Origin: Thermoplasmatota archaeon
Lineage (GTDB): Archaea > Thermoplasmatota > Penumbrarchaeia > Penumbrarchaeales > Penumbrarchaeaceae
Direction: 5' to 3'
DNA length: 44,015 nt
Assembly: GCA_049472235.1 (NCBI GenBank)
Contig: JBLIRI010000002.1
Span: 1-44,015 of the forward strand
Under the pieces are notes generated by a model, which saw only the letters and a program-made list of their open reading frames with translations, was not told where the DNA came from and did no database searches. Shown here in pieces: positions 4,745-44,015 of the stretch; the stretch's first letter is position 1, and each line of letters starts with the position of its first letter. A program made the translations under genes and the position numbers.

Positions 4745-6700
4745 ATGGATGGGAAACTAAGGGAGAAGCTGATCGTCGGGATCGCCGCGGTCCTGTTCTT
4801 CGCCGCCTTCGGAGCGGTTGCATATCTTGACAGGCCCCACGGCACGGTAGGTCACGATTTCGGTCAGGACGATTTCACGGTTGTCATGGAGAGGAACCAG
4901 GGGCACCTTGCCCTTCCCGAGTTCCCCTCGGACCTTCTGATCTTCGGGGCGGGCCAGGAGGCTAGCCTCGATTTCACGGTCACCAACAACGACCAGGATA
5001 ACGATATCGACACAGTTTACATAACCATCCCAGGCGGAGAGGTTTTGAACGCCACAACCGAGTGGTTCGATCCCCTTTTCACACATGAATGGGACTTTTC
5101 AAAGACAAGCGAGGATGTTGCGAAGGTCTATGCAAGGGATGACCTGCCCGGCAGGGTATTCGGAGGCTCTGCTCAGTACGACGTTGCGGGCAATATCGAT
5201 GATGCCCTGGACCATAACGAGAACCTTGGTATCAGCGAAGGGATCACGATAACGCTTGATTTCAACGCCCCGACGACCCCGGGTGTGAAGATGGATGAAG
5301 AGGCCATCAACCTTGAGGTGACGGACGAGCAGAACGAGACCGTCGGTCCTGCCCAAAAATATTCCGTCCTTCCATTCCCATACCCGTATCTGGTCATCGA
5401 TGCGGATTTCGAATTCTACCTTTTCGAACTGACAGGCGCGAATGCCGAGCTTGATATCGAATACGGAGGTTCGATGCTCTTCGGTTCGGGAACAAGGGCT
5501 TCCAACTTCAAAACCTCGGATCACGGTTTCAGGTATCTCTCCTCGGGCGGGTCGACCGTCGCGGTCATAGAGGCACCCGATAATACCACGATCGTGAACC
5601 CCGTCATCAAAGCAAAGACCGATGGCGGGGGACAGTACACCATTGACATGATCAGATATGTCACTAGCACCATCGATCCCGGGCAACCAAGTAACAGCTG
5701 GGTTACCACAAGGAGTTCACAGATAGGTTATTCCGGACAACTGCCTCCAACAGCCGGCGACATAGTGGATCTTGATATCGACGGTGACGGGCTCTTCACC
5801 GATAACGATGGCGACATCGACGGCGACGGAATTCCCAACGACCAGGATACCGACCCTTACGATTCAGGGGTCACGAACCACCATCCTGTGATCCATGATA
5901 TCTCACCCTCGGCTACAAGGATCCCAAAGAACAAGGACCTTGAACTCACAGTGACAGCTTCCGATGCAGATAGCGACACTCTTGCCTATTCCTGGTCTGT
6001 CACCCCGAACACAGGATGGACAGGGAGCACCCCTTCCGTGATCGTCGACCTGAGCGATTTCGAACCCGGCACCTATGTCTTTACCGTTGTCGTTACCGAT
6101 GGTGAAGGCGGCACGGACCAGTCGCAGATCACCATCGAGGTGACCGAGAGCGAGGGGGTCGACGGACCGCCGGTATGGATGATCATTCTGATAATCGTCG
6201 TGATACTCGCGATCGTGGGCGCTGTGGTGTTCTATGTCATGCGCGGTGGTGAAGGAGAGGAGGAGATCCCCGAGGAACTTGCCCCGCAGCCCCCCGAGGA
6301 ATTCGTCGAGGGGCCCGTGGAAGCACCAATGATGCTTGAGGAGGCCCCGTCCATTGCCGAGGAGTACGAGGAGGACCTGGAGGACGAGTTCGATGAGGAT
6401 TTAATGGACGAACTCGAGGAGGGGCCGGTGACCGCGGTATCGAGGGACGCCCTTGGACTCCCTGATGAGTCCGAGATGCAGGAGGTCCAGGACCTCGAGC
6501 TTCTCATAGACGAGATGGAGAGGACCGAGGAGGAGATCGGCGACGTCTGCCCCGAGTGCAGCGCTCCGCTCGGACCCTACGATTCGAGGTGCGGCAACTG
6601 CGGAGCGGAGTTCGAGCTCGCGCTCGAATGTCCGAACTGCGGTGCTGTGATCGAAGAGGACGCCGCGTCCTGCCCGAGCTGCAATGTGAGCTTCCAGTAG
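4745..6700 (+). CDS. large surface protein: signal-anchor, beta-sandwich region, TSP3-type Ca-binding Asp repeats, PKD-like domain, TM, acidic cytoplasmic tail with a double zinc ribbon
   Basis: 651 aa with AGGAG 9 nt upstream of the ATG. Motifs: DLDIDGDGLFTDNDGDIDGDGIPNDQDTDPYD; PKD-like DADSDTLAYSWSV...GTYVFTVVVTDGEGG; TM VWMIILIIVVILAIVGAVVFYV; C-terminal CPEC..CGNC..CPNC..CPSC. Ends in TAG followed by a hairpin. Confidence 0.8.
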   Translation: MDGKLREKLIVGIAAVLFFAAFGAVAYLDRPHGTVGHDFGQDDFTVVMERNQGHLALPEFPSDLLIFGAGQEASLDFTVTNNDQDNDIDTVYITIPGGEVLNATTEWFDPLFTHEWDFSKTSEDVAKVYARDDLPGRVFGGSAQYDVAGNIDDALDHNENLGISEGITITLDFNAPTTPGVKMDEEAINLEVTDEQNETVGPAQKYSVLPFPYPYLVIDADFEFYLFELTGANAELDIEYGGSMLFGSGTRASNFKTSDHGFRYLSSGGSTVAVIEAPDNTTIVNPVIKAKTDGGGQYTIDMIRYVTSTIDPGQPSNSWVTTRSSQIGYSGQLPPTAGDIVDLDIDGDGLFTDNDGDIDGDGIPNDQDTDPYDSGVTNHHPVIHDISPSATRIPKNKDLELTVTASDADSDTLAYSWSVTPNTGWTGSTPSVIVDLSDFEPGTYVFTVVVTDGEGGTDQSQITIEVTESEGVDGPPVWMIILIIVVILAIVGAVVFYVMRGGEGEEEIPEELAPQPPEEFVEGPVEAPMMLEEAPSIAEEYEEDLEDEFDEDLMDELEEGPVTAVSRDALGLPDESEMQEVQDLELLIDEMERTEEEIGDVCPECSAPLGPYDSRCGNCGAEFELALECPNCGAVIEEDAASCPSCNVSFQ

Positions 6701-16449: not shown

Positions 16450-16501
16450 AAGGGTCATTTTGAGGGTCGTATCCAGTCCTTTTCGGGTCGAGGTGTTCTG
16501 C

Positions 16502-19096
16502 ATGGTCAGGTCAACGCACGCCAGGTTCCTGCAAGGCTTATCGATATCCCTGCTGATCGTCATCTCCGGCTTGGTCATCGTTTCGTTGGACGATGCCCCT
16601 GTCCTTGCGGCCGATCCGGTCAGGGGAGTGGGGCCGATCGTCAACAGGTCGGTGGTGGAGATAACCCTCTACGAGGACTTCGGCGAGTTCTCCGGTCAGT
16701 ATTTCTTCGGCACCGGCAGAGGGTCACTTGATATCTTCTACGACCCCAATTACAACTGGAAGGAAGGGGAGATCGAATACCCCCACAAAGCCTTCGAGGT
16801 CGCCTATCCCTGGGGGTACGACAAATCGACAACCCCGATTGAGGTCAAGTTCGTCACCTCCCATTACGATACGAACTTTGCCACCGCCACCGTAACCTGC
16901 CAGAACCCCGATTTCAACTCCTACATCTACGGTCAGGACCATTTCAAGATCAAAGTGACCGCCTGGAACTCAACGGGCAGTTCTACGGCAGAGCTCTGGT
17001 TCGAGGTCCTCAACGTCAACGACCCCCCGACCCAGATCTCCGAGAAGGATTTCTTCTCCATTGCAATGAACGAGGATTCCTATTATGATGGGATCAACAA
17101 GGACAACGACCAGCTTGATGATATATTCGGGGACAAGCGTGATCCGGACGACACCCTGATCTACACCTATGAACCCATGAACGCCCTTGCGAGCCCCGAG
17201 AACATATCCATAGACCTCGATCCGGACGGTTCGTCGATCATATTCACCCCCGTTCCGGACTGGGCCTGCCCCTACGTTCCGACCCAGGATAGATTGAAGG
17301 GGAAGAACTACAGACCTGGCGGGGACAAGACATGGTCGGATTTCTTCGCCCACTTCCGTTTCAACTGCTCCGACCTGGAAGGCGCCTACGTACTCGGCGA
17401 TCTCTATGTCTACGTCGGACCTGTCAACGATGTTCCCGTAATGGACCTCCCCGACGATCACTATGTCAACGAGGACACGAAGGCTGTCATCCAATTCACT
17501 GCCACTGATGTGGACCCCGATTACGAGCAGGTCCTCAGGTTCGGGACAAATGTCACCACGATAGTGTTCGACAGGTCGGGGGTCCAGCTGGAGTTCACGG
17601 AAGGGTATCTGTTCGATTCGAAGACGGGGAAGCTCGAGTTCTTCACCGACAACAAGCTCGTGGGAGACTACCCGGTTGCGGTATGGGTCAACGACAGACC
17701 CTCCGAGGAGCTTGGGACGAAGGGAGACTATCCCGTCACCCCGTACAGGATCTATTCGAACTTGACCCTCCATATAGTCAACAAGAACGATCCTCCAACC
17801 GCCAGGATGGACTCGCCATCGGATACATTCACCTACAACACCACCTGGCCCGTGGAGTTCAACGCGACCAGGAGCGCCGATCCCGACCTGATCCATGGCC
17901 AGGAACTGACCTATAGATGGTACGTGAACGGCGAGCCCGTCGGTGAAGGCATGGTGATCGAGCACCTTTTCACCAAGGAAGGAGAGTACAAGGTAGCCCT
18001 GAACGTTACCGATGGAGAGTTCTTCTCGAAGGTGAACAGGACGATCAAGGTGATAAAGACCAGGATACTTGGCGAGATCTTCGAGGGCAAGGAGATAGAT
18101 CAAACATACAACGACAATGTCTCCGACCCCCTGGTCCTTCACAGGAGCCAGGAGGAGATGTTCATGGAGTTCGACTCGAAGGAATCCATAGACATCCGGA
18201 CGGTTGAAGGATACAGGGACCCCGGCAACGAGAGATTGTACAGGATCCGCATCAATTTCGGGGAGAAGATGGAATATCTTTTCACACAGGAGAGACAGCA
18301 GGAACCCATCCTGGATGTATACTTCCTTAAACCGGACTTCATCGAGGACAGGGTTGCTCCCAAGGATTCGGATATTCCCACCTACAACTTCCCTGTTCCC
18401 ACGTCCAACTACCGTTACAACAAGATGCAGTTCGACCTGAGGCAGGTTTCGGTGATATACTATCCTCTCGTGGACAAGGTACCCGCGATCCGCAAGCTCG
18501 ATACCGACATGGGGGTCGAGATCACGCTGACCGTCGCGGAACTGGATGAGATGAACGTCAATCCGGATTTCATCCTTTACGTGACGGCAAGCATGAAAAC
18601 CACGGTCACCAAGTCCACGGGCCAGGTCACGATAATCAAGTCCTGGGACTCGGGCGGTTTCGGAGCGATGGTGCCCCAGGTCGATGCCGGGACGACCGGA
18701 GACAATGGAGGTTCCCAGAAGGGATTGAGTCCCATCGTCATAGTGATACCCTCGGTGATCCTCCTCGTGATCATACTGGCGGTCGTTGTCCTGCTGATAT
18801 TCTTCTTCCTTGGCAAGAAAGAGAAGAAGGAGGGGCCGGAACAGCTCTATGTCCCGCCACAGGACTTCTCGGTGGAAGATATGGTGTTCGGAGGCCCTCA
18901 GGCCATGACCGCTGAACAATTGTACGGAGCGCCTCAACCTCAAGGTCAGGCCCTCCCCCAGACACCGCCGCCCGAGGGACTTCCTCCTGCCCAGCCTCAG
19001 ACCATGGTCCAGCCGGTCCAGGCTCCGCAGCAGGTCCCGGCTCCACCTCAGGACGCCCCCCAGGGGCCTCCCCCCCAGGTACAGCTCCCACAGTGA
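16502..19096 (+). CDS. large surface protein: signal-anchor, cadherin-like and PKD domains, C-terminal TM, Pro/Gln-rich cytoplasmic tail
   Basis: Start chosen at ATG 16502 (MVRSTHARFLQGLSISLLIVISGLVIV); the track ORF begins at 16460. Motifs: VLNVNDPPT, IVNKNDPPTA, PKD-like YRWYVNGEP...GEYKVALNVTDGEF. TM IVIVIPSVILLVIILAVVVLLIFFF. Tail QPQGQALPQTPPPEGLPPAQPQ... Confidence 0.8.
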   Translation: MVRSTHARFLQGLSISLLIVISGLVIVSLDDAPVLAADPVRGVGPIVNRSVVEITLYEDFGEFSGQYFFGTGRGSLDIFYDPNYNWKEGEIEYPHKAFEVAYPWGYDKSTTPIEVKFVTSHYDTNFATATVTCQNPDFNSYIYGQDHFKIKVTAWNSTGSSTAELWFEVLNVNDPPTQISEKDFFSIAMNEDSYYDGINKDNDQLDDIFGDKRDPDDTLIYTYEPMNALASPENISIDLDPDGSSIIFTPVPDWACPYVPTQDRLKGKNYRPGGDKTWSDFFAHFRFNCSDLEGAYVLGDLYVYVGPVNDVPVMDLPDDHYVNEDTKAVIQFTATDVDPDYEQVLRFGTNVTTIVFDRSGVQLEFTEGYLFDSKTGKLEFFTDNKLVGDYPVAVWVNDRPSEELGTKGDYPVTPYRIYSNLTLHIVNKNDPPTARMDSPSDTFTYNTTWPVEFNATRSADPDLIHGQELTYRWYVNGEPVGEGMVIEHLFTKEGEYKVALNVTDGEFFSKVNRTIKVIKTRILGEIFEGKEIDQTYNDNVSDPLVLHRSQEEMFMEFDSKESIDIRTVEGYRDPGNERLYRIRINFGEKMEYLFTQERQQEPILDVYFLKPDFIEDRVAPKDSDIPTYNFPVPTSNYRYNKMQFDLRQVSVIYYPLVDKVPAIRKLDTDMGVEITLTVAELDEMNVNPDFILYVTASMKTTVTKSTGQVTIIKSWDSGGFGAMVPQVDAGTTGDNGGSQKGLSPIVIVIPSVILLVIILAVVVLLIFFFLGKKEKKEGPEQLYVPPQDFSVEDMVFGGPQAMTAEQLYGAPQPQGQALPQTPPPEGLPPAQPQTMVQPVQAPQQVPAPPQDAPQGPPPQVQLPQ

Positions 19097-19132
19097 GAAG
19101 GACATCCTGCTTTTCGCGATGTTCGAAGGTCC

Positions 19133-19603
19133 CTACTGCTGGTAGATCGTGACCTTCTTCATCTGCACCGGGCTGATGGGTCGATCGTTGGCCCCCTTGG
19201 GGACCGCCTGGATCTTGTCTGCAACTTCCTGCCCCTGCACAATGAACCCGAAAACACTGTGATGGTTGTCAAGCCATGGAGTTCCGCCGTTCTTGGTCAC
19301 GATGAAGAACTGGGACCCGCCGGTGTTCGGGCCGGCGTTCGCCATGGACAGCGCTCCCTTGGAATGTCTGAGCTGCGGGTGGAATTCGTCCTTAATATTG
19401 TATCCGGGACCGCCGGTTCCCGTTCCCTTGGGGCAGCCCCCCTGTATCATGAAGTCGGGGATGACCCTGTGAAAGATCAACCCGTTGTAGAATCCGGAGC
19501 TTGCCAGTTTGATGAAGTTCTGAGTCGTTATCGGGGCCTTGTCCGTTTCAAGCCTTACCACCATATCGCCGTAGTTCGTCTCGATCTTCGCATACGTGGT
19601 CAT
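19133..19603 (-). CDS. ppiB: peptidyl-prolyl cis-trans isomerase, cyclophilin type
   Basis: 156 aa. Motifs: [44 protein letters not shown] stop. Confidence 0.9.
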
Positions 19604-23215: not shown

Positions 23216-23962
23216 CTAGTCCACGGAAAGGGCGGTCGGAATCTCCTTGACGGCCGATATCTGCCATTCCTCGGGGGGGTCCCCGGAACCCTTGACATGA
23301 ACGAAGCTGAGGGTCCTGAACCATGCTTCCCCCCTCTTATCCGCCCTGACCTCGATCACCGCATCGAAGAGCGTCTGTTCGAGGTCCCGGAAAACATCGT
23401 ATTCCAGCGGGCATCCGACCATGACGAGTCCCTGATTCTCCCTTGTTGACCTTTTCAGAATCCTCAATCTATCGACGATCTCCTCAAAGGAGGTTTCCTC
23501 GACCATATCGACGAGGGAATCGATCACCATCCTGAATGGCAGGACCTGTTTCGAGGATATCTCGGATAGTATCGAGAGGACCTTCTTGTGCGGATCTTGG
23601 GCTGCGGGTCTGTCGATCGAGTTTGATGAGATCTCGAGAAGGTCGGTGACCATGATCCCCTCGTTTATGAACCTGTCCCTCTTGACCACATCCGACAGCC
23701 TGAGGTCGATGACCGGGAGGAGGGAGATGAGTTCGGGTGTCCTTTCTATCCCGAGATCGAGCAGTTCCTCCATCAGCTCGCCTTCCGTCTGATGGGTGGA
23801 AACGAATATCGAGCTGGTGCCCTGAGGGACGTTCTCGAACATCTGCTTGAGAAGGAGGTCCCCGCCGCTGCCCTTGCCGGACTTGAACAATATCAGCTTC
23901 GAAAGGCCCACCTTGGAGATGATCCTTTTGGATACATCCTCGTTCCCGACCATTAGCCTCAT
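23216..23962 (-). CDS. KaiC/RecA-like paralog 3, degenerate P-loop
   Basis: 248 aa. Motifs: LILFKSGKGSGGDLL (no GK[ST]), Walker-B-like RMVIDSLVDM, and the C-terminal FVHVKGSG typical of KaiC-like folds. ATGA overlap with the upstream gene. Confidence 0.55.
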   Translation of the reverse strand: MRLMVGNEDVSKRIISKVGLSKLILFKSGKGSGGDLLLKQMFENVPQGTSSIFVSTHQTEGELMEELLDLGIERTPELISLLPVIDLRLSDVVKRDRFINEGIMVTDLLEISSNSIDRPAAQDPHKKVLSILSEISSKQVLPFRMVIDSLVDMVEETSFEEIVDRLRILKRSTRENQGLVMVGCPLEYDVFRDLEQTLFDAVIEVRADKRGEAWFRTLSFVHVKGSGDPPEEWQISAVKEIPTALSVD

Positions 23963-24540
23963 TTCTGGTCACCTCCCGGTATGAGCTGCAGGGTGTGATC
24001 TATCATGTTGGAGAGCTGGTCGGAGACCCTGGACCCTCCCGGTCTCTCCTGATCGAACAGGATTACCAGGCATTGCTCCTCCAGCATCCTGTTCAGGAGG
24101 AAGTGGAAGAATTCGCTTATCTGTCCCTCGGTGTAATACCTCTTCAGGTGCGTCAGGGAATCCAGGACCAGGAAGGTATACTCTCCGTTGGCGCTCCTGA
24201 AGTTCCTCTCCACCTCCATGAGGATGGACTCCAGGCTCACAGGCGTGGACAGGAAGGCGAAATCGTCGGCTACCGGAAGCTTGGAACCCATGGACAGGGA
24301 GATGGTATCGATGACCCTGAGACTCTTTTTTGGAAGCTTGGTCAGGGATATTCTCCTCGATAGTGCGTTCGCAGACCATTGGGTGGATATGAGCACCCCC
24401 TTTCTACCCATTTTCTTGGTGAGTCTCTCTATCAATTCGGTAAAGGTCTTGATGAACGCTTCCCCTGAGGAGGAGATCATGATCTGCGCCCCGGGTCTCA
24501 GGCTGCCATCCGGGACGGACTTGACCTTCTCGACCACCAT
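23959..24540 (-). CDS. KaiC/RecA-like paralog 2, P-loop lost
   Basis: 193 aa. GAQIMISSSGEAF sits where Walker A is expected. Walker-B-like FLVLDSLTHL. The start ATG directly abuts the TAG stop of the upstream gene. Confidence 0.5.
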   Translation of the reverse strand: MVVEKVKSVPDGSLRPGAQIMISSSGEAFIKTFTELIERLTKKMGRKGVLISTQWSANALSRRISLTKLPKKSLRVIDTISLSMGSKLPVADDFAFLSTPVSLESILMEVERNFRSANGEYTFLVLDSLTHLKRYYTEGQISEFFHFLLNRMLEEQCLVILFDQERPGGSRVSDQLSNMIDHTLQLIPGGDQK

Positions 24541-25275
24541 CTATCTCACCTCCAGAGGTTTGATCCGCGGTACAAGGAAGACACCGTCCTTGGAGATCTC
24601 GATGACATAGGTGTTCTTGGCATGCGAGCTTCCCTTCCAACGCTCTATTGTCATGGTGTTCAACATGATGGGGGGCTCCTCCTCTTTCTTGAAACCCAGG
24701 ATGATGTTGAAATTGTAGGGCTCCAGGCATCTGAGGTCCATTTGATGGATCGGGAGGTTCGTGTCCAGGGCTATGAATGTCGAGACGCCCAGTTCGATGA
24801 GCTTCCCCTTCAGTCTCTGAATGAAGAACACCTTGTTCCATTCCTCGAGAAGATGCAGGATCGGGTTGATGGGGTCGATGACCAGCCTTTTCGCATCGAG
24901 ATGCTGCAGGACCTGTATCAGAAGGTCGAAGAGCAGGTCCACGTCATCGGGGCCGGCGTTCTCCATATCGAGACCGACCAGTGCCATCAGGTCCTGGATG
25001 TTGAAGATCGAGATATATCCGTCCTTCAGCCAGTTCGATTGATAGGTCCTGAACGATGACATATGCGAGGATATCCGGCCGGGCGGCTCGTTCGTGATGA
25101 TGCAAACGTTCTTGTTCATATCAGCGCCCTGGAAGAGAAAATGATAGAGCATGGAGCTCTTTCCTGACCCGGCTGGCCCGTGGAAAATACCCAGAGACCC
25201 GGGAATGACCCTTCCCAGGGTTATGTTGTCAAGTTGGTCCACACCGAAACAGCTCTCCCCATCCTTTCCTTCCAT
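24541..25275 (-). CDS. KaiC/RecA-superfamily ATPase (COG0467-like), intact Walker A
   Basis: 244 aa. Motifs: GPAGSGKSS, Walker B KRLVIDPINPI, C-terminal IERWKGSSHAKNTYVIEISKDGVFLVP. TATA-like TTAAATAA lies about 25 nt upstream. Confidence 0.7.
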   Translation of the reverse strand: MEGKDGESCFGVDQLDNITLGRVIPGSLGIFHGPAGSGKSSMLYHFLFQGADMNKNVCIITNEPPGRISSHMSSFRTYQSNWLKDGYISIFNIQDLMALVGLDMENAGPDDVDLLFDLLIQVLQHLDAKRLVIDPINPILHLLEEWNKVFFIQRLKGKLIELGVSTFIALDTNLPIHQMDLRCLEPYNFNIILGFKKEEEPPIMLNTMTIERWKGSSHAKNTYVIEISKDGVFLVPRIKPLEVR

Positions 25276-33792: not shown

Positions 33793-36700
33793 ATGGGATG
33801 GCGAGCCAAAAGCGTCCTCACATGCTTGGTCCTGATGCTTCTCATAGGCATTCCAGTGATCGGAACCGCTGACGGGACCGAGGAGGAACAACAGGTCCAG
33901 GGTGCCCCCCCATCAAGAAGCCTTGTAACGATCCCCAAGGAGCATCTCAGGATAATCTCCGGAGGGATCTCGCAGTGGGGCCCCTACTGTCTCGGGATCG
34001 TCAACAGAACGACCTCCATCGAGCTGAAATTGAAGAACACGGCTGACGCTCCATTTACGGGAATACAGGTGGACCTGACCTTGTACTGGTACGATGCTCA
34101 CAAGGGCTTTTCCTTCGATAAGGGCCGGATCATGTACAAGGACCAGACAATGGTTTCCATCTTGCCGGGGGACGGGACCCTTTCGGAGCTGATCAGGTTC
34201 AAATGGGTTCCGAAATTTGCCGGCGCCTATGTCATGAACATCACCATAAAACTGCCAGGGGACCCGCGGCCCTACACCAACAGGACGTTGATCGCCGGTC
34301 TCCAGTATACCCTGGACCAGAGATCGATAACAGATGGCCTATGGGTGGGGACAGATTTCTGGAATGGGTCCTCTATGGATGGTTGGACATCTGAATCGGA
34401 CCAGGGTGAGGAAGGGATGGAATGGCATATCAGCGATCATGCCCTGGCCAGAGGCTATGAGACGCTGCATACGCCTGAAACGGCATACTGGGTCGGGAAC
34501 GATTCTTCGGGATCATCTCCCCGGACGGGAACATATTCCCTGATCTCGCCCCCAATGGACCTGACCGGGTTCAATCCCGATTCCTGGGACAGTTTCCTGG
34601 GAACGAGCAGACCACAGATATATTTCCTGTACAAGTTCAGGGGCAATATCACCAAGGAGGGAATATCCGGCGGCGGCGGGATATACCATTTCATAAGGTC
34701 CCGCAGCAATGGTGAATGGGAGCCCTGGGAGCCCCTTTTGGACCCGAAGGGTGAATGGATCAATCTCACGGGAAATACCACCAATGTCATCTGGGACCTG
34801 TCAAAGAGACCCTTTCTCCAGGGAGACCTGGAATTCATCGGCATCGATCTCGGGGAATACCAGGGAAGGACCGTCCAGATCAAGTTCGAGTATCATCCTT
34901 CCGGATATCCGGAACCGGGCTATGTGATCGATGACCTGCTCCTGATAGGCAAAGAGACGGTCGACATCGAACCGTTCTACATCGAATCCTTCACCGATGA
35001 GGTTCTCAGGTCCGACCCGGGTGAACCTCTGGGATTTGACCTGAAAGTCGTATCCAAGCTCAAGACCACCGATGATGAGGTCTCGATCCGGGTGGAGGCC
35101 ATCGAGGGTTCGGACTTCATCGACCTGTTCCGTGATGTGGTCATCGAGCCAGGGATACTGTCGCTCCCCAGGTCCTCGACAACTCCATCGACGATCTCGA
35201 TCACACTCATGCTTCCCCCATCATCCCCTTCGGGAGAGGGTTGGCTGAAGGTCAGGATATTCGGAAGCGGCACCATCAAGGAGGTTTCCTTCCGATTCAT
35301 CGTGAATTCCAGAAGGTCTCTGGACCTCTCGGTCGAGGGAAGGACATCCACCACACTTGAACCCGGAGTTCCCGAGAACCTCCAGGTCTCTGTCCACAAT
35401 GAGGGGAATGTGGAAGAGTACGTTCATCTGACCTTCATTACCGGTACCGATCTTGCAGCGGAAGGCAAGATGGGGTCCTTCTCGCTTGTGCCGGACGAGA
35501 TCATGACCACCTCGATCGCCATATCAGTTCCTCTGGATTCTCTGGCAGGAGAGAAATCCGGCTACATAGTTGTCTCGAGGTCCGCCCTCCCGGCAAATGC
35601 TATCGACATTATCGAGGAGGAGCCCAATCCGGGGTGGTCATTCATCAGGCTCGATCATTTCGTGGGACATGTGTTTGACCTCGAGTTCATCGATCCTTCT
35701 CCGGCCGCCATCTATTATGAGATCGAGAATCCTCCAAAGAACGGCACCTTGGAGGTCCCATTTCACCTGATCCTGGCTAATAAGGGTAATTCCAGGGATG
35801 TGCCGATCTTCTTCAGCCCTGGTTGGACGGACAGGGACGACATAGCACTTGTTCTGCCGGAGAATGAATCGATCGATCCGGGCTCCACCAAATTCGTGAA
35901 CATCACCGTGAAGGTAACATTCCCCGTACCCGACGGGATATATCAGTTCAATGTTCAGGCAACCTCTTCGGGAAGCGAGGAAATCAAGACCGAAATGATC
36001 ACCCTTACACTCTCCATCGGCGGAGCCCCGGTCTCAAGCGGCATTTACCTCGTAAATGGCTCTCTGGAACTTCAACCGGCAAGGGCAGTGCTTGGCCAGG
36101 ATGTGGTAATATCCTTCACCGTGCGGTCCTTTGGATTCCTGGAGGATGATAGCTTCACCTCTCTGATACAGCTCAATAATCTGGAGATCAACCAACCGTA
36201 TCTGATATCCCGTTATCAAGACAAGGTATGCCAGCTGACCTGGAGGTTCGATCAGCCCGGGAGTGTCCGGCTTAGGATAAGTCTTCCGGATTGGAAAGAC
36301 CCTCCACCCGGGGCCGTCGAACTGGTATCCTCTCTGGAAAGGTATATTGACGTTGGTTTTATCGACCTTAACATCACGAAGGTCCAGCTCATTAAGGAGA
36401 ATGGGGATGAGGCCCAGGGTGAGGTTCGACCGGGCGTTCACGAGTTCTCGGTGAACCTGAGCAATAACGGGAATGCGACTGCGGACATTTTCGCACTTTC
36501 GCTGACGGTGGAGGACATGTCAACGGGAACGTGGTTGAACCTCACACTTAACGTGACCGACCTTGGACCAGGAGAGATCAGGAACCTGACATTCAAGAAC
36601 ATCTTGCTCCAGCAGGAAAGGGTCTACTTCTTCACGATAGCCGTTGATAATAATGGAAGATGGGAGGATATGGACCTCACCAATGACCAGAAGGAGCAAG

Positions 36701-36831
36701 AGGTGGAAGTGGGGACGGTTCCTCCCGAACTGCCCGCGTGGAGGAACGACCTATGGTTGGTGGTGGGCTTCATGATCACCCTCATCCTGACAGTGGGGCT
36801 TCTTCTTTACATGCTCAGGAAGAAGTTGTGA
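33793..36831 (+). CDS. very large surface protein: signal-anchor, MAM/choice-of-anchor-J-like jelly-roll, multiple CARDB-like beta-sandwich domains, C-terminal TM
   Basis: 1012 aa. GWTSES...WHISD...YSLISPPMDL...VQIKFEYH...GYVIDDLLLIG is jelly-roll-like. CARDB-like VSVHNEGNVEEYVHLTF and FSVNLSNNGNATADIF...LGPGEIRNLTF. TM LWLVVGFMITLILTVGLLLYML. Confidence 0.75.
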   Translation: MGWRAKSVLTCLVLMLLIGIPVIGTADGTEEEQQVQGAPPSRSLVTIPKEHLRIISGGISQWGPYCLGIVNRTTSIELKLKNTADAPFTGIQVDLTLYWYDAHKGFSFDKGRIMYKDQTMVSILPGDGTLSELIRFKWVPKFAGAYVMNITIKLPGDPRPYTNRTLIAGLQYTLDQRSITDGLWVGTDFWNGSSMDGWTSESDQGEEGMEWHISDHALARGYETLHTPETAYWVGNDSSGSSPRTGTYSLISPPMDLTGFNPDSWDSFLGTSRPQIYFLYKFRGNITKEGISGGGGIYHFIRSRSNGEWEPWEPLLDPKGEWINLTGNTTNVIWDLSKRPFLQGDLEFIGIDLGEYQGRTVQIKFEYHPSGYPEPGYVIDDLLLIGKETVDIEPFYIESFTDEVLRSDPGEPLGFDLKVVSKLKTTDDEVSIRVEAIEGSDFIDLFRDVVIEPGILSLPRSSTTPSTISITLMLPPSSPSGEGWLKVRIFGSGTIKEVSFRFIVNSRRSLDLSVEGRTSTTLEPGVPENLQVSVHNEGNVEEYVHLTFITGTDLAAEGKMGSFSLVPDEIMTTSIAISVPLDSLAGEKSGYIVVSRSALPANAIDIIEEEPNPGWSFIRLDHFVGHVFDLEFIDPSPAAIYYEIENPPKNGTLEVPFHLILANKGNSRDVPIFFSPGWTDRDDIALVLPENESIDPGSTKFVNITVKVTFPVPDGIYQFNVQATSSGSEEIKTEMITLTLSIGGAPVSSGIYLVNGSLELQPARAVLGQDVVISFTVRSFGFLEDDSFTSLIQLNNLEINQPYLISRYQDKVCQLTWRFDQPGSVRLRISLPDWKDPPPGAVELVSSLERYIDVGFIDLNITKVQLIKENGDEAQGEVRPGVHEFSVNLSNNGNATADIFALSLTVEDMSTGTWLNLTLNVTDLGPGEIRNLTFKNILLQQERVYFFTIAVDNNGRWEDMDLTNDQKEQEVEVGTVPPELPAWRNDLWLVVGFMITLILTVGLLLYMLRKKL

Positions 36832-36937
36832 AGGCTACCCGGCGGACAGCCGCTCATCATTTCCCGACCCGGGCCCCGTCTCTTGTAAAAATTCATATAC
36901 TGGGTGGCATTTCGAGGTCTCTCTGATATCTGCCAAA

Positions 36938-36949
36938 CATATATATACC
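36938..36949 (+). promoter_or_regulatory. TATA-like box upstream of the str cluster
   Basis: CATATATATACC lies about 45-55 nt upstream of the uS12 ATG. Confidence 0.35.
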
Positions 36950-36993
36950 AGGTTCAAGTAACCCCCGCAGGTATCCAACAGGAGTGTTCCCAT

Positions 36994-37422
36994 ATGGCAA
37001 AGGGACTGTTTACGGCTAGAAAGTTGAGAAAGGACGCCCAGAAGAAACGGTGGAACGACCGCTATTACAAAAGGCGCGTCCTGAAGCTCAAGGAGAGATC
37101 GGACCCCCTTCAGGGCAGCGCCCAGGCAAGAGGTATAGTCCTAGAGAAGGTCGGAGTGGAGGCCAAGCAGCCCAACTCTGCCATCAGGAAATGCGTCAAG
37201 ATCCAGCTGATCAAGAACGGAAGGCAGATAACTGCTTTCGCCCCCGGCAACGGAGCGATCAACTTCATAGACGAGCACGATGAGGTTATGGTCGAGGGTA
37301 TCGGCGGTCGTCTGGGCCGTTCCTACGGTGACATTCCCGGGGTCAGATACAAGGTGATCAAGGTCAACAGCGTTTCCCTCGATGAGATGGTAAGAGGAAG
37401 GAAGGAGAAACCTGTCCGCTGA
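36994..37422 (+). CDS. rps12: 30S ribosomal protein uS12
   Basis: 142 aa. Motifs: [44 protein letters not shown]. Start moved from track 36904 to ATG 36994. Confidence 0.95.
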
Positions 37423-37436
37423 ATGGAGGATTCAAA

Positions 37437-38420
37437 ATGGCCCCGAAGAAGAAGGAAGAGGTCTCTGAAGAAACTGCCCAGGCAGTCGAGGAGAAGCAGG
37501 AAGAGACCGAGGTCAAGGTCGAGGAAACACCGAAGAAGAAGACCTCGAGAAAGACCAAGAAGGAAGAGATAAAGGAACAACCGGTCAAGGAAGAGGAGCC
37601 CCCGGCGGAAAGCGAGATGCAGGAAGCCGAGCAGGAAGCAAAGGAAGAGGCCAAGACCGAAGATATTCCCCAGGAGCCGGAAAAGGTCGAGGCCGGGGAA
37701 CCCGAGGAGGTCTCGGAGGATGTGGAGGAGGCTCCCAAAGAGGATATCGATGAAGCCCCGGCCGAAGAGGTCCCTGAGGAGCCGTCGGAGGAAGAGGGCT
37801 CGAAGGAGCCTGCAAAGAAGAGGTCTACCAAGAAGTCAAAGGAGGAAGGCCCATTCCCGGAGGACCTGGTTTTCGGAAGGTACAATTCCAAGGAGGTCGT
37901 GGTGGAGGACCCGAGCCTGAAGGCCTTCATCAACCTCGATCCGTCCTATGTTCCCCATTCAAGTGCCAGGCATGCCAACAAACCTTTTCACAAGCACAAG
38001 ATATCGATCGTTGAGAGGCTCATCAACAACATGATGCGGACCGAGAAGTATACCGGAAAGAAGACGAAGAGCTACAAGGCGGTGCTTGATGCCTTCCAGC
38101 TGATAGAGAAAAGGACCAAGGAGAACCCGGTCCAGGTTCTCGTCAGGGCCATCGAGAACTGCGCTCCCAGGGAAGAGGTTACAAGGCTCAAGTTCGGCGG
38201 GATCTCCGTTCCGAAGGCCGTCGATACCGCCCCCACAAGAAGGCTGGACATAGCCCTCCGCAACATCTCGATCGGCACGGTGAAAGCATCCCACAAGAAC
38301 AAGAAATCCATATCCGAGTGCCTGGCCGCGGAGCTGATAGCCGCCTCAAAGGGGGATATCCAGAGCTTTGCGGTCTCCAAGAGGGACGAGGTCGAGAGGG
38401 TAGCGAAATCGGCCCATTGA
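37437..38420 (+). CDS. rps7: 30S ribosomal protein uS7 with a ~140-aa KE/P-rich N-terminal extension
   Basis: 327 aa with GGAGGA 7 nt upstream. The canonical archaeal uS7 core starts near LVFGRYNSKEVVVEDPSLKAFINL and ends FAVSKRDEVERVAKSAH. No alternative start lies near the core. Confidence 0.9.
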   Translation: MAPKKKEEVSEETAQAVEEKQEETEVKVEETPKKKTSRKTKKEEIKEQPVKEEEPPAESEMQEAEQEAKEEAKTEDIPQEPEKVEAGEPEEVSEDVEEAPKEDIDEAPAEEVPEEPSEEEGSKEPAKKRSTKKSKEEGPFPEDLVFGRYNSKEVVVEDPSLKAFINLDPSYVPHSSARHANKPFHKHKISIVERLINNMMRTEKYTGKKTKSYKAVLDAFQLIEKRTKENPVQVLVRAIENCAPREEVTRLKFGGISVPKAVDTAPTRRLDIALRNISIGTVKASHKNKKSISECLAAELIAASKGDIQSFAVSKRDEVERVAKSAH

Positions 38421-38470
38421 TGCAGATGAAGAGAACATGATGCCATAAAATAGCCCCAGAGTTGGTGAGT

Positions 38471-40672
38471 ATGGGAAGAAGAGAAGATAATATCAGAGAA
38501 GCCCAGAAGATCATGGACAAGCCCACGTTCATCAGGAACATCGGAATCGTGGCGCATATTGATCACGGCAAGACAACACTTTCCGACAACCTGATCGCAG
38601 GCGCCGGGATGATGTCGGAAGAACTTGCCGGAAAGCAGCTTCTTCTGGACTTCGATGAGCAGGAGCAGGCGAGGGGTATCACGATCAATGCGGCGAACGC
38701 ATCCATGGTCCACCAGTACTAGGGTGAGAACCACCTGATCAATCTCATCGATACCCCGGGCCTCGTCGATTTCGGCGGTGATGTCACAAGGGCGATGAGG
38801 GCCGTCGACGGATGTGTCATTGTGACCTGCGCCGTCGAGGGTGTCATGCCCCAGACCGAAACAGTGATAAGGCAGGCACTTAAGGAGAAGGTCAAACCGG
38901 TACTCTTCATCAACAAGGTGGACCGTCTGATAAACGAACTCAAGGTTACCCCGGAGGAGATGCAGAAGAGGTTCGTCAAGATAATCAAGCACGTCAACGA
39001 CCTCGTGACGAAGATGGTCCCGCCCGAGTTCAGGGGAAAATGGTTCATGACCCCCGAGAACGGAACCGTAGCCTTCGGGTCAGCCTATCATAACTGGGCG
39101 ATCTCGGTGCCCTACATGCAGAAGCAGGGAGTGACCTTCAAGGACATCTACGATTATCTGAACCAGGGAAGGCAGAAGGAACTTGCCAAGAAAGCTCCGC
39201 TCCATCAGGTGCTTCTTGATATGATAATCAAGCATCTTCCGAATCCCTTTGATGCTCAGAAGTACAGGATCCCCCACATATGGCACGGGGACGAAGGGTC
39301 CGACATCGGAAAGGCCATGGTGAGCTGTTCTCCGAGGTCCGAACCTGTGTTGATGGTCACCAAGATCATCATCGATCCGCATGCCGGAGAGATCGCCTCG
39401 GGAAGACTTTTTGCTGGCTCCATCGAGAGGGGCCAGGAACTCTATGTGAGCGGTATGCCCGGAGTGGCAAGGGCCCAGGCGGTCTCGGTAGCGGTCGGTC
39501 CGGACAGGATCACGGTGGATAAGGCCATAGCGGGAAATATCGTCATGGTCTCTGGTCTGAAGTCGGCCATTGCCGGTTCGACCGTTTCAGGATTGCAGGA
39601 GATCGATGCCTTCGAAAAGATAGTGCATGTCTCGGAACCCGTGGTCACCGTGGCGGTGGAGGCAAAGCATATGAAGGACCTCCCCAAGCTCGTGGAGGTT
39701 CTCAGGATGGTCGCAAAGGCGGATCCTTCACTGAAGGTGGAGATAAACCAGGAGACCGGGGAGCACCTTCTCTCGGGTATGGGCGAACTTCACCTCGAGA
39801 TCACCGAATACAGGATACAGAAGGAGCAGGGGATCGAGATCAAGACCTCCCCGCCCATTGTTGTTTACAGGGAAACGATCCTCAAGAGGTCCGAGAGGGA
39901 GTTCGAGGGAAAGTCTCCGAACAAGCACAACAGGTTCTATTTCAGAGTGGAGCCCCTGCCCGAGGCAGTGGTCAACGCGATCAGGTCCGGAGAGGTGGCT
40001 TCCGACGAGAGGATCAAGGACGCCAAGGCCATGGCCAAGCAGCTTGAAGGTCTCGGCATGGACAAGGATGACGTCAAGCATGTCTACTGGATATGCGGCT
40101 CCAACATCTTCCTCAACTGTACCAAAGGTATCCAGTACCTCCACGAGACCAGGGAGCTTCTAATAGACGCTTTCAAGGAGGCCATGACCAAGGGACCAAG
40201 GGCGTGGGAACCCTGCATGGGTGTATGCGTCAAGCTGATGGATGCCAAACTTCACGAGGACACTATCCACAGAGGTCCGGGTCAGGTCATACCGGCCGGA
40301 AGGTCCGGCATATACGGTGCCATGGTGGAGGCATCCACCACCCTTCTGGAGCCGAAGCAGAAGCTCTTCGTTTCGGTACCCAACGAGCTCATGGGCGGCG
40401 TCAACCGTGAACTGAACTCGAGAAGGTGCACCATCGAGGATATGCCAATGGAAGGCGACCAGGTCACAATAATTGCCGCGGCTCCGGTTTCGGAGCTCTT
40501 CGGCTTTGCCGGTGCGATAAGGGGAGCCACCCAGGGAAGGGCCCTCTGGACGACCGAATTCCTGGGCTTCAGCCCGATACCAAGGGAGCTTCTGGATAAT
40601 GCCACAAGGGAGATCAGAACAAGGAAAGGTCTGAAACCGGATCCGCCCACCGCTGATTACTATGCGGCCTGA
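38471..40672 (+). CDS. fusA: elongation factor 2 (aEF-2), interrupted by an in-frame TAG at 38720-38722; formally a pseudogene under the standard code
   Basis: [36 protein letters not shown] ... [48 protein letters not shown] ... NKVDR ... [11 protein letters not shown] (diphthamide His). Track ORFs 38462..38722 and 38795..40672 are in the same frame. Confidence 0.9.
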
Positions 40673-40746
40673 ACATAGTACAATGAACATCAAACGTTAA
40701 ATATGAGGAGTAAATAAGGGAACAATCCGAGTAGGAGGGAATATCA

Positions 40747-42024
40747 ATGGCAGCAGAAAAACCCCATATGAACCTCGTATTCATCGGTCACGTCGACCAT
40801 GGTAAGTCAACCTCCGTGGGGAGGATCCTACTGGATACGGGGCATGTAGAGAAACATCTGATAGAAAAGTACAGGAAGCAGGCTGACGAGAAGGGAAAGG
40901 CGACCTTTGAGTTCGCTTGGGTCATGGACAGTTTGAAGGAAGAGAGGGAGCGCGGTGTGACCATCGACGTTTCCCACAAGCGGTTCGACACCGACAAGTT
41001 CTACTTCACCGTCATAGACGCACCTGGCCACAGGGATTTCGTCAAGAACATGATCACCGGAACATCCCAGGCCGATGCCGCGGTTCTCGTGGTTGCGGCC
41101 CCGGAGGGTGTCATGGCCCAGACAAAGGAACACGTCTTCCTTGCAAAGACCCTTGGAGTGAACCAGATCATCATAAACGTGAACAAGATGGACGCCACCA
41201 AGCCTGAATACAGCCAGGAAAGGTTCAATCAGGTCAAGGAGGACGTCGGCAAGCTCCTCAGGATGGTCGGATACAAGGACGATATGGTCCAGTTCGTCCC
41301 GAGCTCGGCATTCCTCGGCGACAACGTCGTGACCAAGAGCGGTAAGATGAGCTGGTGGTCCGGACCGACACTCCTGCAGTGTCTTGACAACCTTCAGATC
41401 CCACAGAAGCCCACCGAGCTTCCCCTCAGGCTACCGGTCCAGGACGTCTATACCATCACCGGTATCGGGACCGTCCCTGTGGGCAGGGTCGAGACTGGTA
41501 TCCTCAAGGTTGGGGACACTGTCGTGTTCTCCCCTTCGGGAGCCGGCGGCGAGGTCAAGACCATCGAGATGCATCACGAGACAATGCCCAAGGCGGAGCC
41601 CGGCGACAACGTGGGCTTCAACGTCAGGGGCGTCGGAAAGAACGATATCAGGAGAGGAGATGTCTGCGGGACCTCGGCCTCCAAGCCGACCGTGGCCAAG
41701 GCATTCACCGCCCAGATAGCAGTTCTCCAGCACCCGTCCGTGATAGCGGTCGGATACACTCCGGTGTTCCACCTTCACACCGCCCAGGTGGCCTGCACCT
41801 TCGAGGAGATCCTTAAGAAGCTGGACCCCAAGACCGGCCAGGTCAAGGAGGAGAACCCGCAGTTCCTGAAGACGGGCGACATCGCCTTCGTCAAGATCAC
41901 GCCGACAAAGCCACTGGTCATCGAGACTGCCAAGGAATACCCACAGCTCGGAAGGTTCGCCATCCGCGATATGGGGACCACCGTCGCTGCAGGCATGTGC
42001 CTTGACATCGAGAAGAAGGAGTAA
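40747..42024 (+). CDS. tuf: elongation factor 1-alpha (aEF-1A)
   Basis: 425 aa. Motifs: [27 protein letters not shown] lies upstream. Confidence 0.95.
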
Positions 42025-42051
42025 GCCTTAAACTGATGATGGAATGGAGGA

Positions 42052-42369
42052 ATGGGATTGGTAGCAAAGGCCAGGATATCGTTGACGGGAACGGACGCAA
42101 AATCCCTTGACGGCGTCTGCAGTCAGATAAAACAGATCTCTGAAAGGACCGGAGTGAACCTCTCCGGGCCGATCCCGCTCCCCACAAAAAGGCTTGTGGT
42201 GCCCTGCAGGAAGTCCCCGGACGGCGAAGGTTCCGAGACCTGGGACCGCTGGGAGATGAGGGTCCACAAGAGGCTGATATATCTCGATGCCGACGATCGG
42301 GCGCTTAGGTCCCTTATGAGGATCAAGGTCCCCGATGATGTCAACATCGAGATCGTACTGAGAAGCTGA
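42052..42369 (+). CDS. rps10: 30S ribosomal protein uS10
   Basis: 105 aa. Motifs: [40 protein letters not shown]. Confidence 0.95.
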
Positions 42370-42381
42370 GACCCTCCTACT

Positions 42382-42420
42382 CGAGCCGCTTGGCTTCTCT
42401 TTTTTTCATTTTATCTTTTT
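42382..42420 (+). terminator. short hairpin plus oligo-T tracts after the str cluster
   Basis: AGCC-GCTT-GGCT followed by a T7 run (42400-42406) and a T5 run (42416-42420). Archaeal termination is typically at oligo-T. Confidence 0.4.
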
Positions 42421-42482
42421 CCAGATAGTGTATGGTCTATACGGAAAGAGTTTTACCGATCAATATTTCGGTTTGGGAGGTA

Positions 42483-43223
42483 TCATATGACCTCTCCGCA
42501 GAATGTGCAGAACTGATGGTCCTTGATGTTCATCCTCCCGCAGTGGGGGCACCTGATCTTGTGTTTGTCCTTCTTCTTCAGAAGCTCCCCCACCATATCC
42601 TGTTCTTCGACCTCTTCAAGCTCCTCCACCTCATCAACCTCTTCCAGCTCTTCGAGGTCCTCGATGTCTCCCTCTCCTTCCTCATCCTCCCAGGTATGCC
42701 CCTTTAGAGCCCATTTCTTGACCTCCTTGAGACCGGTCATCCCCGCGGGAGGGAGGGCTATGAGCACCTTCATCCCCCTCCTTGTCAACCCTTTGTGTAT
42801 GTAGACCCCTTCCTCCCGGTCCACGATCCCCTTCAGCTCTCCCCTGGCGATCATGTTCTCGAGGACCTGTGTGATCTGCTCGGTGTCGCAGACCCCCACC
42901 CTTGCCAGGTATTGAAGGGGGATCCTTTCGTTGTACTTCACCTTGGAATGGTAGAGGAAGAAGATCATCTTGTATCTCAGGTCCTTCCATCGCATGTCCA
43001 TGGTCCAGAATGCGACCATGAGGATGGAGAACAGGAGGGCGATGAACCCGACGAACATGATGAGCGCCCAGCCCATGGGATCTTCCATGAAGAAATCCGA
43101 GACCTCCTCGAGAAAAGGCGCTCCGAAAAAGCCAAGCATGAAAAAGGTCAGAAAGACGAGGAACTGGACCAGGAATACTCCTGCAAGGATGTTGGTGATG
43201 ATCCTGAATGGACGTCCGATCAA
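42483..43223 (-). CDS. membrane-anchored winged-helix-like protein with an acidic linker and a C-terminal zinc ribbon
   Basis: 246 aa with a TTG start (uncertain). 2-3 N-terminal TMs. wHTH-like LQYLARVGVCDTEQITQVLENMIARGELKGIVD. Acidic EDEEGEGDIEDLEELEEVDEVEELEEVEE. CPHC...CTFC. Confidence 0.55.
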   Translation of the reverse strand: MIGRPFRIITNILAGVFLVQFLVFLTFFMLGFFGAPFLEEVSDFFMEDPMGWALIMFVGFIALLFSILMVAFWTMDMRWKDLRYKMIFFLYHSKVKYNERIPLQYLARVGVCDTEQITQVLENMIARGELKGIVDREEGVYIHKGLTRRGMKVLIALPPAGMTGLKEVKKWALKGHTWEDEEGEGDIEDLEELEEVDEVEELEEVEEQDMVGELLKKKDKHKIRCPHCGRMNIKDHQFCTFCGEVI

Positions 43224-43449
43224 ATCTATCGCTCGAGTATCATGCTTATTGTTTATTATTTCTATCGTTATATGAGAAAAAACCCAATCAATGCTCCGCT
43301 CCTCTGCAGTTGATAACTGAGGCCACCATATCGATAGGAAAGTGTTAGCCTCAGACTTCGCAAAATCGGATTATGGGATGATCATTTTGCGATTTTGCTT
43401 GGTTTTTACCTTTTCGATTGGAGATTAAATTTCTGAAAAGGTAAAAATA

Positions 43450-43465
43450 GGCGCAGAGGAGGGGA
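43450..43465 (-). repeat. partial copy A of the tRNA-Ser 3' end
   Basis: GGCGCAGAGGAGGGGA, identical to copy B over 16 nt. It corresponds to the acceptor/T-stem 3' strand of the tRNA with one mismatch. Confidence 0.6.
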
Positions 43466-43685
43466 CGTTGAAATAAGTCAAATAATTGACGATTATTCTT
43501 TTTTCAATGTCTTTGGAAAATCAAAGATTTTCCAGACCTGGATGTTAAAATGATAAGTTGTTTATTTCTTAAACATCCAGATCCAGATAAATATGCTTTA
43601 ATTGGAATAAAATTCATATTTATCGTTTGTAATTAATTTCGCGCGCCAATTTCTGTGCCCAATTTAAAATTGACGAAAAGAAATT

Positions 43686-43706
43686 GGCGCAGAGGAGGGG
43701 ATTCGA
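43686..43706 (-). repeat. partial copy B of the tRNA-Ser 3' end (T-loop to acceptor, followed by CCA)
   Basis: The reverse complement, TCGAATCCCCTCCTCTGCGCC(A), matches the tRNA 3' end TCGAATCCCCCCCTCTGCG with one mismatch. Confidence 0.65.
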
Positions 43707-43844
43707 CATTTCAAAATCGGAGATTTTTCATGTCTTGAAACATCGGTGGGGGCCGTGATATGTTTCAAGATCTAGGCAAATTCTTTCAGAATTTCCCTGA
43801 CCTGCAAACCCTCGGATAAGGCAACCTCGGGTTTCCAGGACCAA

Positions 43845-43860
43845 GGTTCGAATCCCCCCC
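43845..43860 (+). repeat. inverted 16-nt copy of the tRNA-Ser T-arm/acceptor segment
   Basis: GGTTCGAATCCCCCCC on the + strand is the exact reverse complement of 43916-43931 inside the tRNA gene. It lacks a complete T stem, so it is not a tRNA. Confidence 0.6.
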
Positions 43861-43909
43861 GCGAATATTACATTTCAAAATTAAAATTGGTCAGGACCAA
43901 TGAAATGAG

Positions 43910-43995
43910 CGCAGAGGGGGGGATTCGAACCCCCGAGGGCTTGCGCCCACCGGATTTCAAGTCCGGCGCCGTGGGCCGTGCTTGACTACCTCTGC
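43910..43995 (-). tRNA. tRNA-Ser (anticodon UGA), type II with a long variable arm
   Basis: Hand-folded. Acceptor GCAGAGG/CCTCTGC. Anticodon arm CCGGA-CTTGAAA-TCCGG. Variable arm GGGC-GCAA-GCCC. T arm GGGGG-TTCGAAT-CCCCC. Discriminator G. No encoded CCA. Confidence 0.85.
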
Positions 43996-44015
43996 GGATT
44001 TTGGCGGTTGTCGGT

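Follow-up and report, generated by a model that had tools for sequence, protein, structure and literature searches.

Two closely spaced lesions in the elongation factor 2 gene of an uncultured Thermoplasmatota archaeon point to a local consensus fault rather than to stop codon recoding

Results

The EF-2 gene and its operon

The window analysed here, a 44,015-nt stretch of DNA from an uncultured Thermoplasmatota archaeon (contig JBLIRI010000002.1), carries a gene for the archaeal translation elongation factor 2 (aEF-2, hereafter EF-2) that is interrupted by an in-frame TAG. The gene lies on the + strand in a cluster with the order S12-S7-EF2-EF1a-S10 and, judged from its translation and its collinearity with orthologues, comprises 733 codons (38471..40672) with two point lesions. 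Its frame runs from the ATG at 38471 to the TGA at 40672 and contains one internal stop only, the TAG at codon 84 (38720..38722). As the initial annotation had proposed, the open reading frames (ORFs) 38462..38722 and 38795..40672 share one frame and together form a complete EF-2, with no indel, the length being equal to that of the 733-aa orthologues with which it is collinear.

The initial annotation had also considered everything downstream of the TAG to be intact. This holds for the G4 motif NKVD (38912..38923) and for the domain IV loop with the diphthamide His (40253..40285), but not for codon 98 (38762..38764), where CTC (Leu) replaces the switch-II His of the G3 motif DTPGHVDF. This second lesion lies 14 codons (42 nt) downstream of the TAG, and the motif reads DTPG-L-VDF. 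Upstream of both, the G1/P-loop motif AHIDHGKT (38552..38575) is intact. The gene thus has the full-length collinear homology of an aEF-2/eEF2 translational GTPase (G domain plus domains II-V), together with its G1, G4 NKxD and diphthamide His loop, and departs from this family in its frame, broken by the TAG, and in G3/switch II, where DTPGL stands in place of DxxGH. The nearest EF-2 orthologue is a 733-aa protein from a Thermoplasmatota metagenome-assembled genome (MAG) with 95% protein identity. A protein with 95% identity to the window EF-2 (P0001) carries PF00009, PF22042, PF03144, PF14492, PF03764 and PF00679, and residues 1-223 match the Pyrococcus horikoshii aEF-2 (PDB 5h7k/5h7j) with E=1e-104.

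The surrounding genes of the cluster, all on the + strand, are those of ribosomal protein S12 (36904..37422, intact), ribosomal protein S7 (37437..38420, intact, with an E/K-rich N-terminal extension), EF-1alpha (40747..42024, intact, with 0 deviations at 176 near-invariant columns) and ribosomal protein S10 (42052..42369), whose protein is identical in several related MAGs. The S7 extension is ~140 residues long and rich in Glu, Lys and Pro; S7 gene calls in relatives (L081-L088) range from 173 to 421 aa, and the extension seems to be clade-wide and variable in length.

The two lesions in comparison with orthologues

The orthologue sample consisted of 169 EF-2 loci, 164 of which span codon 84, with 132 distinct N-terminal sequences. 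The check for a conserved TAG in orthologous genes, as suggested in the initial annotation, was run and returned the TAG in 0/169 loci; indeed, no in-frame stop occurs anywhere in EF-2 in these loci, including those of the pyrrolysine (Pyl)-using Methanosarcinales and Methanomassiliicoccales, and codon 84 is a stop in none of the 164 loci spanning the site (132 distinct sequences). The column at codon 84 is variable and of a surface type (E 54, D 25, K 23, N 12, G 8, Q 7, R 2, H 1). Glu and Asp are therein the commonest residues, in line with the initial annotation, which had placed the TAG where these residues are normal, but nearly all close relatives (at least ~88% protein identity) have Lys at this position, in the sequence YKGENH, encoded by AAG or AAA. 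Hence, the parent codon would be AAG or AAA and not GAG, from which the initial annotation had derived the TAG by a change of one nucleotide.

The column at codon 98, on the other hand, is His in 132/132 distinct orthologous N-terminal sequences, and the changed base, T at 38763, is A in all relatives (CAC or CAT). A His following DxxG occurs in all translational GTPases (PMC4532990). Compared with the relatives, both lesions are A-to-T transversions (Lys AAG/AAA to TAG and His CAC/CAT to CTC), and the altered bases, 38720 and 38763, are separated by 43 nt. All but three of the examined clade members with at least 88% identity agree on a 16-residue stretch covering the lesion region. The nearest relatives come from hot-spring, Zodletone and cold-seep assemblies and are MAGs of uncultured Thermoplasmatota; the closest of them (JBLIRH010000002.1) shows 95% protein and 87% DNA identity, a MAG labelled EX4484-6 (Ca. 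Penumbrarchaeia, PMC12220078) is ~85% identical and the Methanomassiliicoccales are ~67% identical.

With T at 38763, an imperfect inverted repeat, GCCTCGTC ... GGCGATGAGGGC (window 38759-38806), becomes complete, and the local hairpin is 4 kcal/mol stronger (folding energy -26.3 instead of -22.3 kcal/mol). This could reflect a templated (quasi-palindrome) change, although a coincidence is also possible.

Constraint on the gene and its neighbourhood

Apart from the two lesions, the gene bears the marks of strong purifying constraint. Between the window EF-2 and its nearest relative, synonymous divergence (dS) is 0.84 and nonsynonymous divergence (dN) is 0.023 (dN/dS 0.027), and the differences are spread evenly, without any local excess. 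In a 120-sequence alignment, the window departs from the fully invariant columns once only, by H98L, a count that does not set it apart from the other sequences. The same substitution is the sole deviation at ~660 near-invariant columns in seven genes (S12, S7, EF-2, EF-1alpha, S10, a 1012-aa surface protein and a 246-aa protein). As a rough estimate, two anomalies would fall within 15 codons of the ~2990 tested with a chance of ~1%, or ~4% when EF-2 alone is considered. Since this clustering is improbable by chance, it points to one shared local cause.

A decaying pseudogene would combine disabling lesions with relaxed constraint. The former are present (a nonsense codon plus the loss of the switch-II His), but the latter is not, as the low dN/dS is accompanied by no further deviant near-invariant column and no indel. 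The gene is thus not decaying and, because of this ratio and of the lack of any other deviant site, an inactivation must be extremely recent. A chimeric junction was considered and rejected, the synonymous divergence from the relative L001 being even across the gene. A generally error-prone assembly was likewise rejected, as there is no other broken gene and no N in the window; an apparent overlap at 28539-28633, which might be taken for a broken gene, corresponds to two separate genes.

Use of TAG as a stop codon in the window

Among the 33 likely genes of the window, 23 end in TGA, seven in TAG and three in TAA. The stops of the TAG-ended genes lie at 1113, 6698, 14930, 19133, 23216, 24541 and 25397, which comprises all six listed in the initial annotation plus that at 1113. 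We sorted the read-through cases by the categories of Kivenson et al. (bioRxiv 10.1101/2024.09.30.615893), and two of them serve as Category-4-type controls. The cyclophilin gene (19133..19603, - strand) encodes a complete PF00160 domain followed by the TAG at 19133, and read-through would run for ~720 codons antisense through the PKD-domain gene 16460..19096, close to the ~700 codons given in the initial annotation. The gene of a PKD/zinc-ribbon protein (4745..6700, + strand) also ends in TAG, and its read-through would create an 84-nt overlap with the convergent NAD kinase gene. The other five TAG genes show short extensions, a TAG-TGA tandem, a KaiC-like in-frame abutment or longer extensions without homology.

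Given the stop census and the large-overlap read-through cases, TAG is an ordinary stop codon here and is not globally reassigned, as the initial annotation had concluded. Under Genetic Code 34, TAG would be rare or absent as a genuine stop and free of large-overlap read-through, which is not the situation in a window where 7/33 genes end in it. Two candidate TAG-fused recoded genes were rejected on inspection: 16970..19603 (- strand) is the cyclophilin gene plus the antisense of the PKD gene, and 23959..25275 (- strand) consists of two separate, complete KaiC-like domains, with a TAG and then an ATG between them. The latter belong to three tandem KaiC/RecA-like ORFs (PF06745, DUF7090, DUF7504; window 23216-25275, - strand), in which the TAG of the first ORF directly abuts the next ATG in frame and so mimics an internal TAG, each domain being complete.

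A local consensus or assembly error as the probable origin of the lesions

The initial annotation had listed a consensus or assembly error and a recently inactivated copy among its options, and both fit, and are favoured by, the evidence above. Of these, we regard a technical artefact, in the form of a local consensus or assembly error, as the probable explanation of the sequence. The gene carries two unique, disabling changes of the same type within one read length, it is a constrained gene in its canonical place, and the contig has no other broken gene, and a local consensus fault is therefore the simplest account. From the lesions, their uniqueness and clustering, the constraint on the gene and the normal use of TAG, we infer an error and not a real allele as the cause. 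The gene would then be the organism's ordinary, single, str-operon aEF-2, unable to make a working factor as written. A consensus stretch shorter than one read would carry wrong bases or reflect a non-viable minority variant, and the living population would have AAG at codon 84 and CAC at codon 98, with no involvement of recoding.

The two unique states, 43 nt apart and absent from all relatives, fit within one read length, and comparable clusters are found when this gene is examined in other assemblies. Of 260 distinct public EF-2 sequences, two others (~1%) have radical singleton changes grouped at invariant columns. In L170 (CDLKOV010000361.1, GCA_975904065.1; L170:1209-1268), GHDDY replaces GHVDF (V99D + F101Y), both by T-to-A changes that lie 3 and 9 nt from the position of the window's second lesion; P0016 has an M437K/L440R/H441Q cluster. 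The near-coincidence with L170 hints that the GC-rich switch-II segment may be a systematic error hotspot.

Several points weigh against an artefact. The search for another assembly of this species, which would have provided an independent reading of both bases, had no success. Exact-protein look-ups of EF-1alpha, the 625-aa EF-2 ORF and the 1012-aa surface protein gave no match; the S10 protein is identical in 21 contigs, all of them from other species whose DNA identity does not exceed 87%; no metagenome contig matched an exact 66-nt pattern in which both lesion sites were set to N; the best hit of a protein-guided scan of metagenome contigs was 91% identical and not of the same species; and all members of the nearest 90% clusters are at most 95% identical. 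In addition, the rest of the 44 kb looks clean, and the assembly is not generally error-prone. An A-to-T change is not the classic signature of any nameable sequencing platform, and an AAG to TAG change at a Lys position would also be expected for a neutral Lys-to-Pyl replacement. Finally, the artefact call was made from the consensus sequence alone.

A recent loss-of-function allele

The main competitor of a consensus error, possible but distinctly the less likely of the two, is a genuine and very recent loss-of-function allele. The sequenced cells or chromosomes would carry K84amber + H98L, with translation sustained by another intact EF-2 copy. Such an allele could be sheltered by a second gene elsewhere, by other chromosome copies in a polyploid cell or by other cells in the population. 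Two disabling lesions in a gene with no other damage are what would be expected shortly after inactivation, and the stronger hairpin formed with T at 38763 is what a quasi-palindrome mutation would produce. The amber codon could even have been selected as a silencer of a dominant-negative H98L protein: as His91Ala EF-G is dominant-lethal, an upstream nonsense codon would relieve the toxicity, and silencing by the amber codon would then link both lesions causally.

However, EF-2 is essential, the gene occupies the canonical operon slot, and an allele that is lethal would not be expected to become the consensus. Each of 80 genomes matched in a genome collection contributed one EF-2 locus, in a scan that picks loci by peptide words and keeps the best 80, so that a divergent paralogue would be missed. 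Furthermore, this explanation calls for two independent changes 43 nt apart and none else in 2.2 kb, which has a probability of ~4% by position alone (rough estimate).

Site-specific recoding and a split EF-2

Site-specific recoding, an option raised in the initial annotation, would have UAG at codon 84 decoded, either as Pyl, with pylT/pylS located elsewhere in the genome, or by a tRNA that is a suppressor or near-cognate, and so yield a full-length EF-2. We consider this highly unlikely. It is true that the TAG replaces a Lys codon (AAG) at a variable, substitution-tolerant column, where any amino acid would be tolerated, that EF-2 is otherwise full length, and that related Thermoplasmatota (Methanomassiliicoccales) use Pyl. 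A share of 21% TAG among the stops is, taken alone, compatible with Pyl machinery in another part of the genome, since TAG stops can stay frequent in organisms that acquired a Pyl cassette recently (bioRxiv 10.1101/2024.09.30.615893). Nor is sharing of the TAG by orthologues required of a Pyl gene, as most non-methyltransferase Pyl sites are singletons.

The read-through product, on the other hand, would not be a plausible functional protein, as it would lack the switch-II His. In E. coli EF-G, the His91Ala mutation abolishes GTP hydrolysis and slows translocation up to 30-fold, and the mutant factor is locked on the ribosome and dominant-lethal when expressed (PMC4718068); GTPase activity and Pi release are impaired when this His is replaced by other residues (PMC4532990). 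By analogy, and in view of the conservation of the residue, aEF-2 H98L is presumably equivalent to the dead EF-G mutant, and the read-through protein would be inactive and toxic. Recoding would then not rescue the gene, and selection would favour termination at the TAG and not read-through. The conservation of the TAG in 0/169 loci and the seven of 33 genes that end in TAG, at least two of them of the Category-4 type, also argue against recoding. Moreover, the window contains no tRNA(CUA) and no pyl-like gene, its sole tRNA being Ser-TGA, and Pyl is not mentioned in the paper describing the related class EX4484-6 (Ca. Penumbrarchaeia).

There is also no PYLIS-like structure 3' of the TAG: over the 120 nt from the TAG onward, the minimum free energy was -39.8, compared to -40.7 +/- 3.5 for shuffled sequences (z = 0.24). 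A PYLIS-like stem-loop is optional and known only for some methyltransferase genes. The TAG is real in the sequence, yet it is not evidence of recoding. A variant in which Pyl or an amber suppressor decodes a former Lys codon of the single essential EF-2, with H98L being a separate base-call error, appears less probable still.

The least credible of the proposals, with hardly any probability left to it, is a split or re-initiated EF-2, in which an N-terminal piece of 83 residues and a C-terminal one would be separate translation products acting together: the two same-frame ORFs do cover the protein, but no in-frame ATG, GTG or TTG lies between the TAG and the ATG at 38795, so that the second piece would lack residues 85-108, including the whole G3 motif, and no relative has a split gene. 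Translational bypassing was rejected, as it would delete the G3 motif, and so was a diversity-generating retroelement (adenine-specific mutagenesis), since no template repeat of the region lies within 36000-44015 and the annotated genes include no reverse transcriptase.

Other features of the window

The sole tRNA gene, tRNA-Ser(TGA) (43909..43995, - strand), stands beside an AT-rich spacer (window 43330-43995) in which the 3' end of the tRNA recurs twice, as partial copies in direct orientation (43441-43470 and 43677-43706). On the + strand, a T-arm-like sequence, GGTTCGAATCCCCCCC, is present at 43845-43860 and was called by neither ARAGORN nor Rfam. These tRNA pieces resemble decayed tRNA genes or the remains of att sites left by integrated elements. 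The window is also unusually rich in genes for very large proteins, secreted or at the surface, that carry PKD, Big and cadherin-like domains (4745-6700, 7992-10172, 16460-19096, 28539-30980 and 33793-36831); several of these proteins have C-terminal membrane anchors or zinc ribbons; the orthologues of 33793..36831 give only faint CARDB matches. An intact class I lysyl-tRNA synthetase (PF01921) is encoded at 12096-13661 (- strand).

Discussion

As written, the sequence is a defective copy of a normal gene. Where a conserved gene contains an internal TAG, the sequence right around it should be inspected before the stop is attributed to recoding. Among EF-2 genes assembled from metagenomes, ~1% show singleton changes that cluster at invariant sites, and the window EF-2 needs flagging or read-based correction before it is used as a phylogenetic marker or in genetic-code analyses. 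If the TAG were decoded after all, a universal translation factor would contain Pyl, or be encoded with a dual-meaning UAG, in a non-methanogenic Thermoplasmatota lineage that is related to the class EX4484-6 and does not belong to the groups known to use Pyl. This would be a rare case of stop codon recoding in an essential factor, in a lineage not known to recode.

Compared with the Pyrococcus horikoshii aEF-2 and the archaeal str cluster, the window gene is alike in length (733 codons), operon position, G1, G4 and the diphthamide loop, but codon 84 is a stop and His101 (chain alignment numbering) is Leu. The likeness to Pyl-decoding archaea and their Category 1 TAGs, including Genetic Code 34 (Kivenson et al.), consists of a TAG within the frame, flanked by homologous sequence on either side, in the genome of a Thermoplasmatota archaeon and at a position that is Lys in relatives. 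In contrast to those archaea, TAG is a common genuine stop in the window, including cases with large read-through overlaps, and the EF-2 TAG is a singleton, with no Pyl machinery within the window and a product that would lack the switch-II His.

The same switch-II His is replaced in the GTPase-dead EF-G mutants of the H91A/H92A type (Cunha et al. 2013, PMC4718068; Koripella et al. 2015, PMC4532990). Those mutants are engineered and bacterial, whereas the change in the window is found in an environmental archaeal sequence and lies behind a stop codon, in a protein that would normally not be made. The clusters in L170 and P0016 resemble the window lesions in that each groups two or three radical changes, found in no other sequence, over a few codons where the columns are otherwise invariant, and the changes in L170 are A:T transversions too. 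They differ in that no stop codon is created there.

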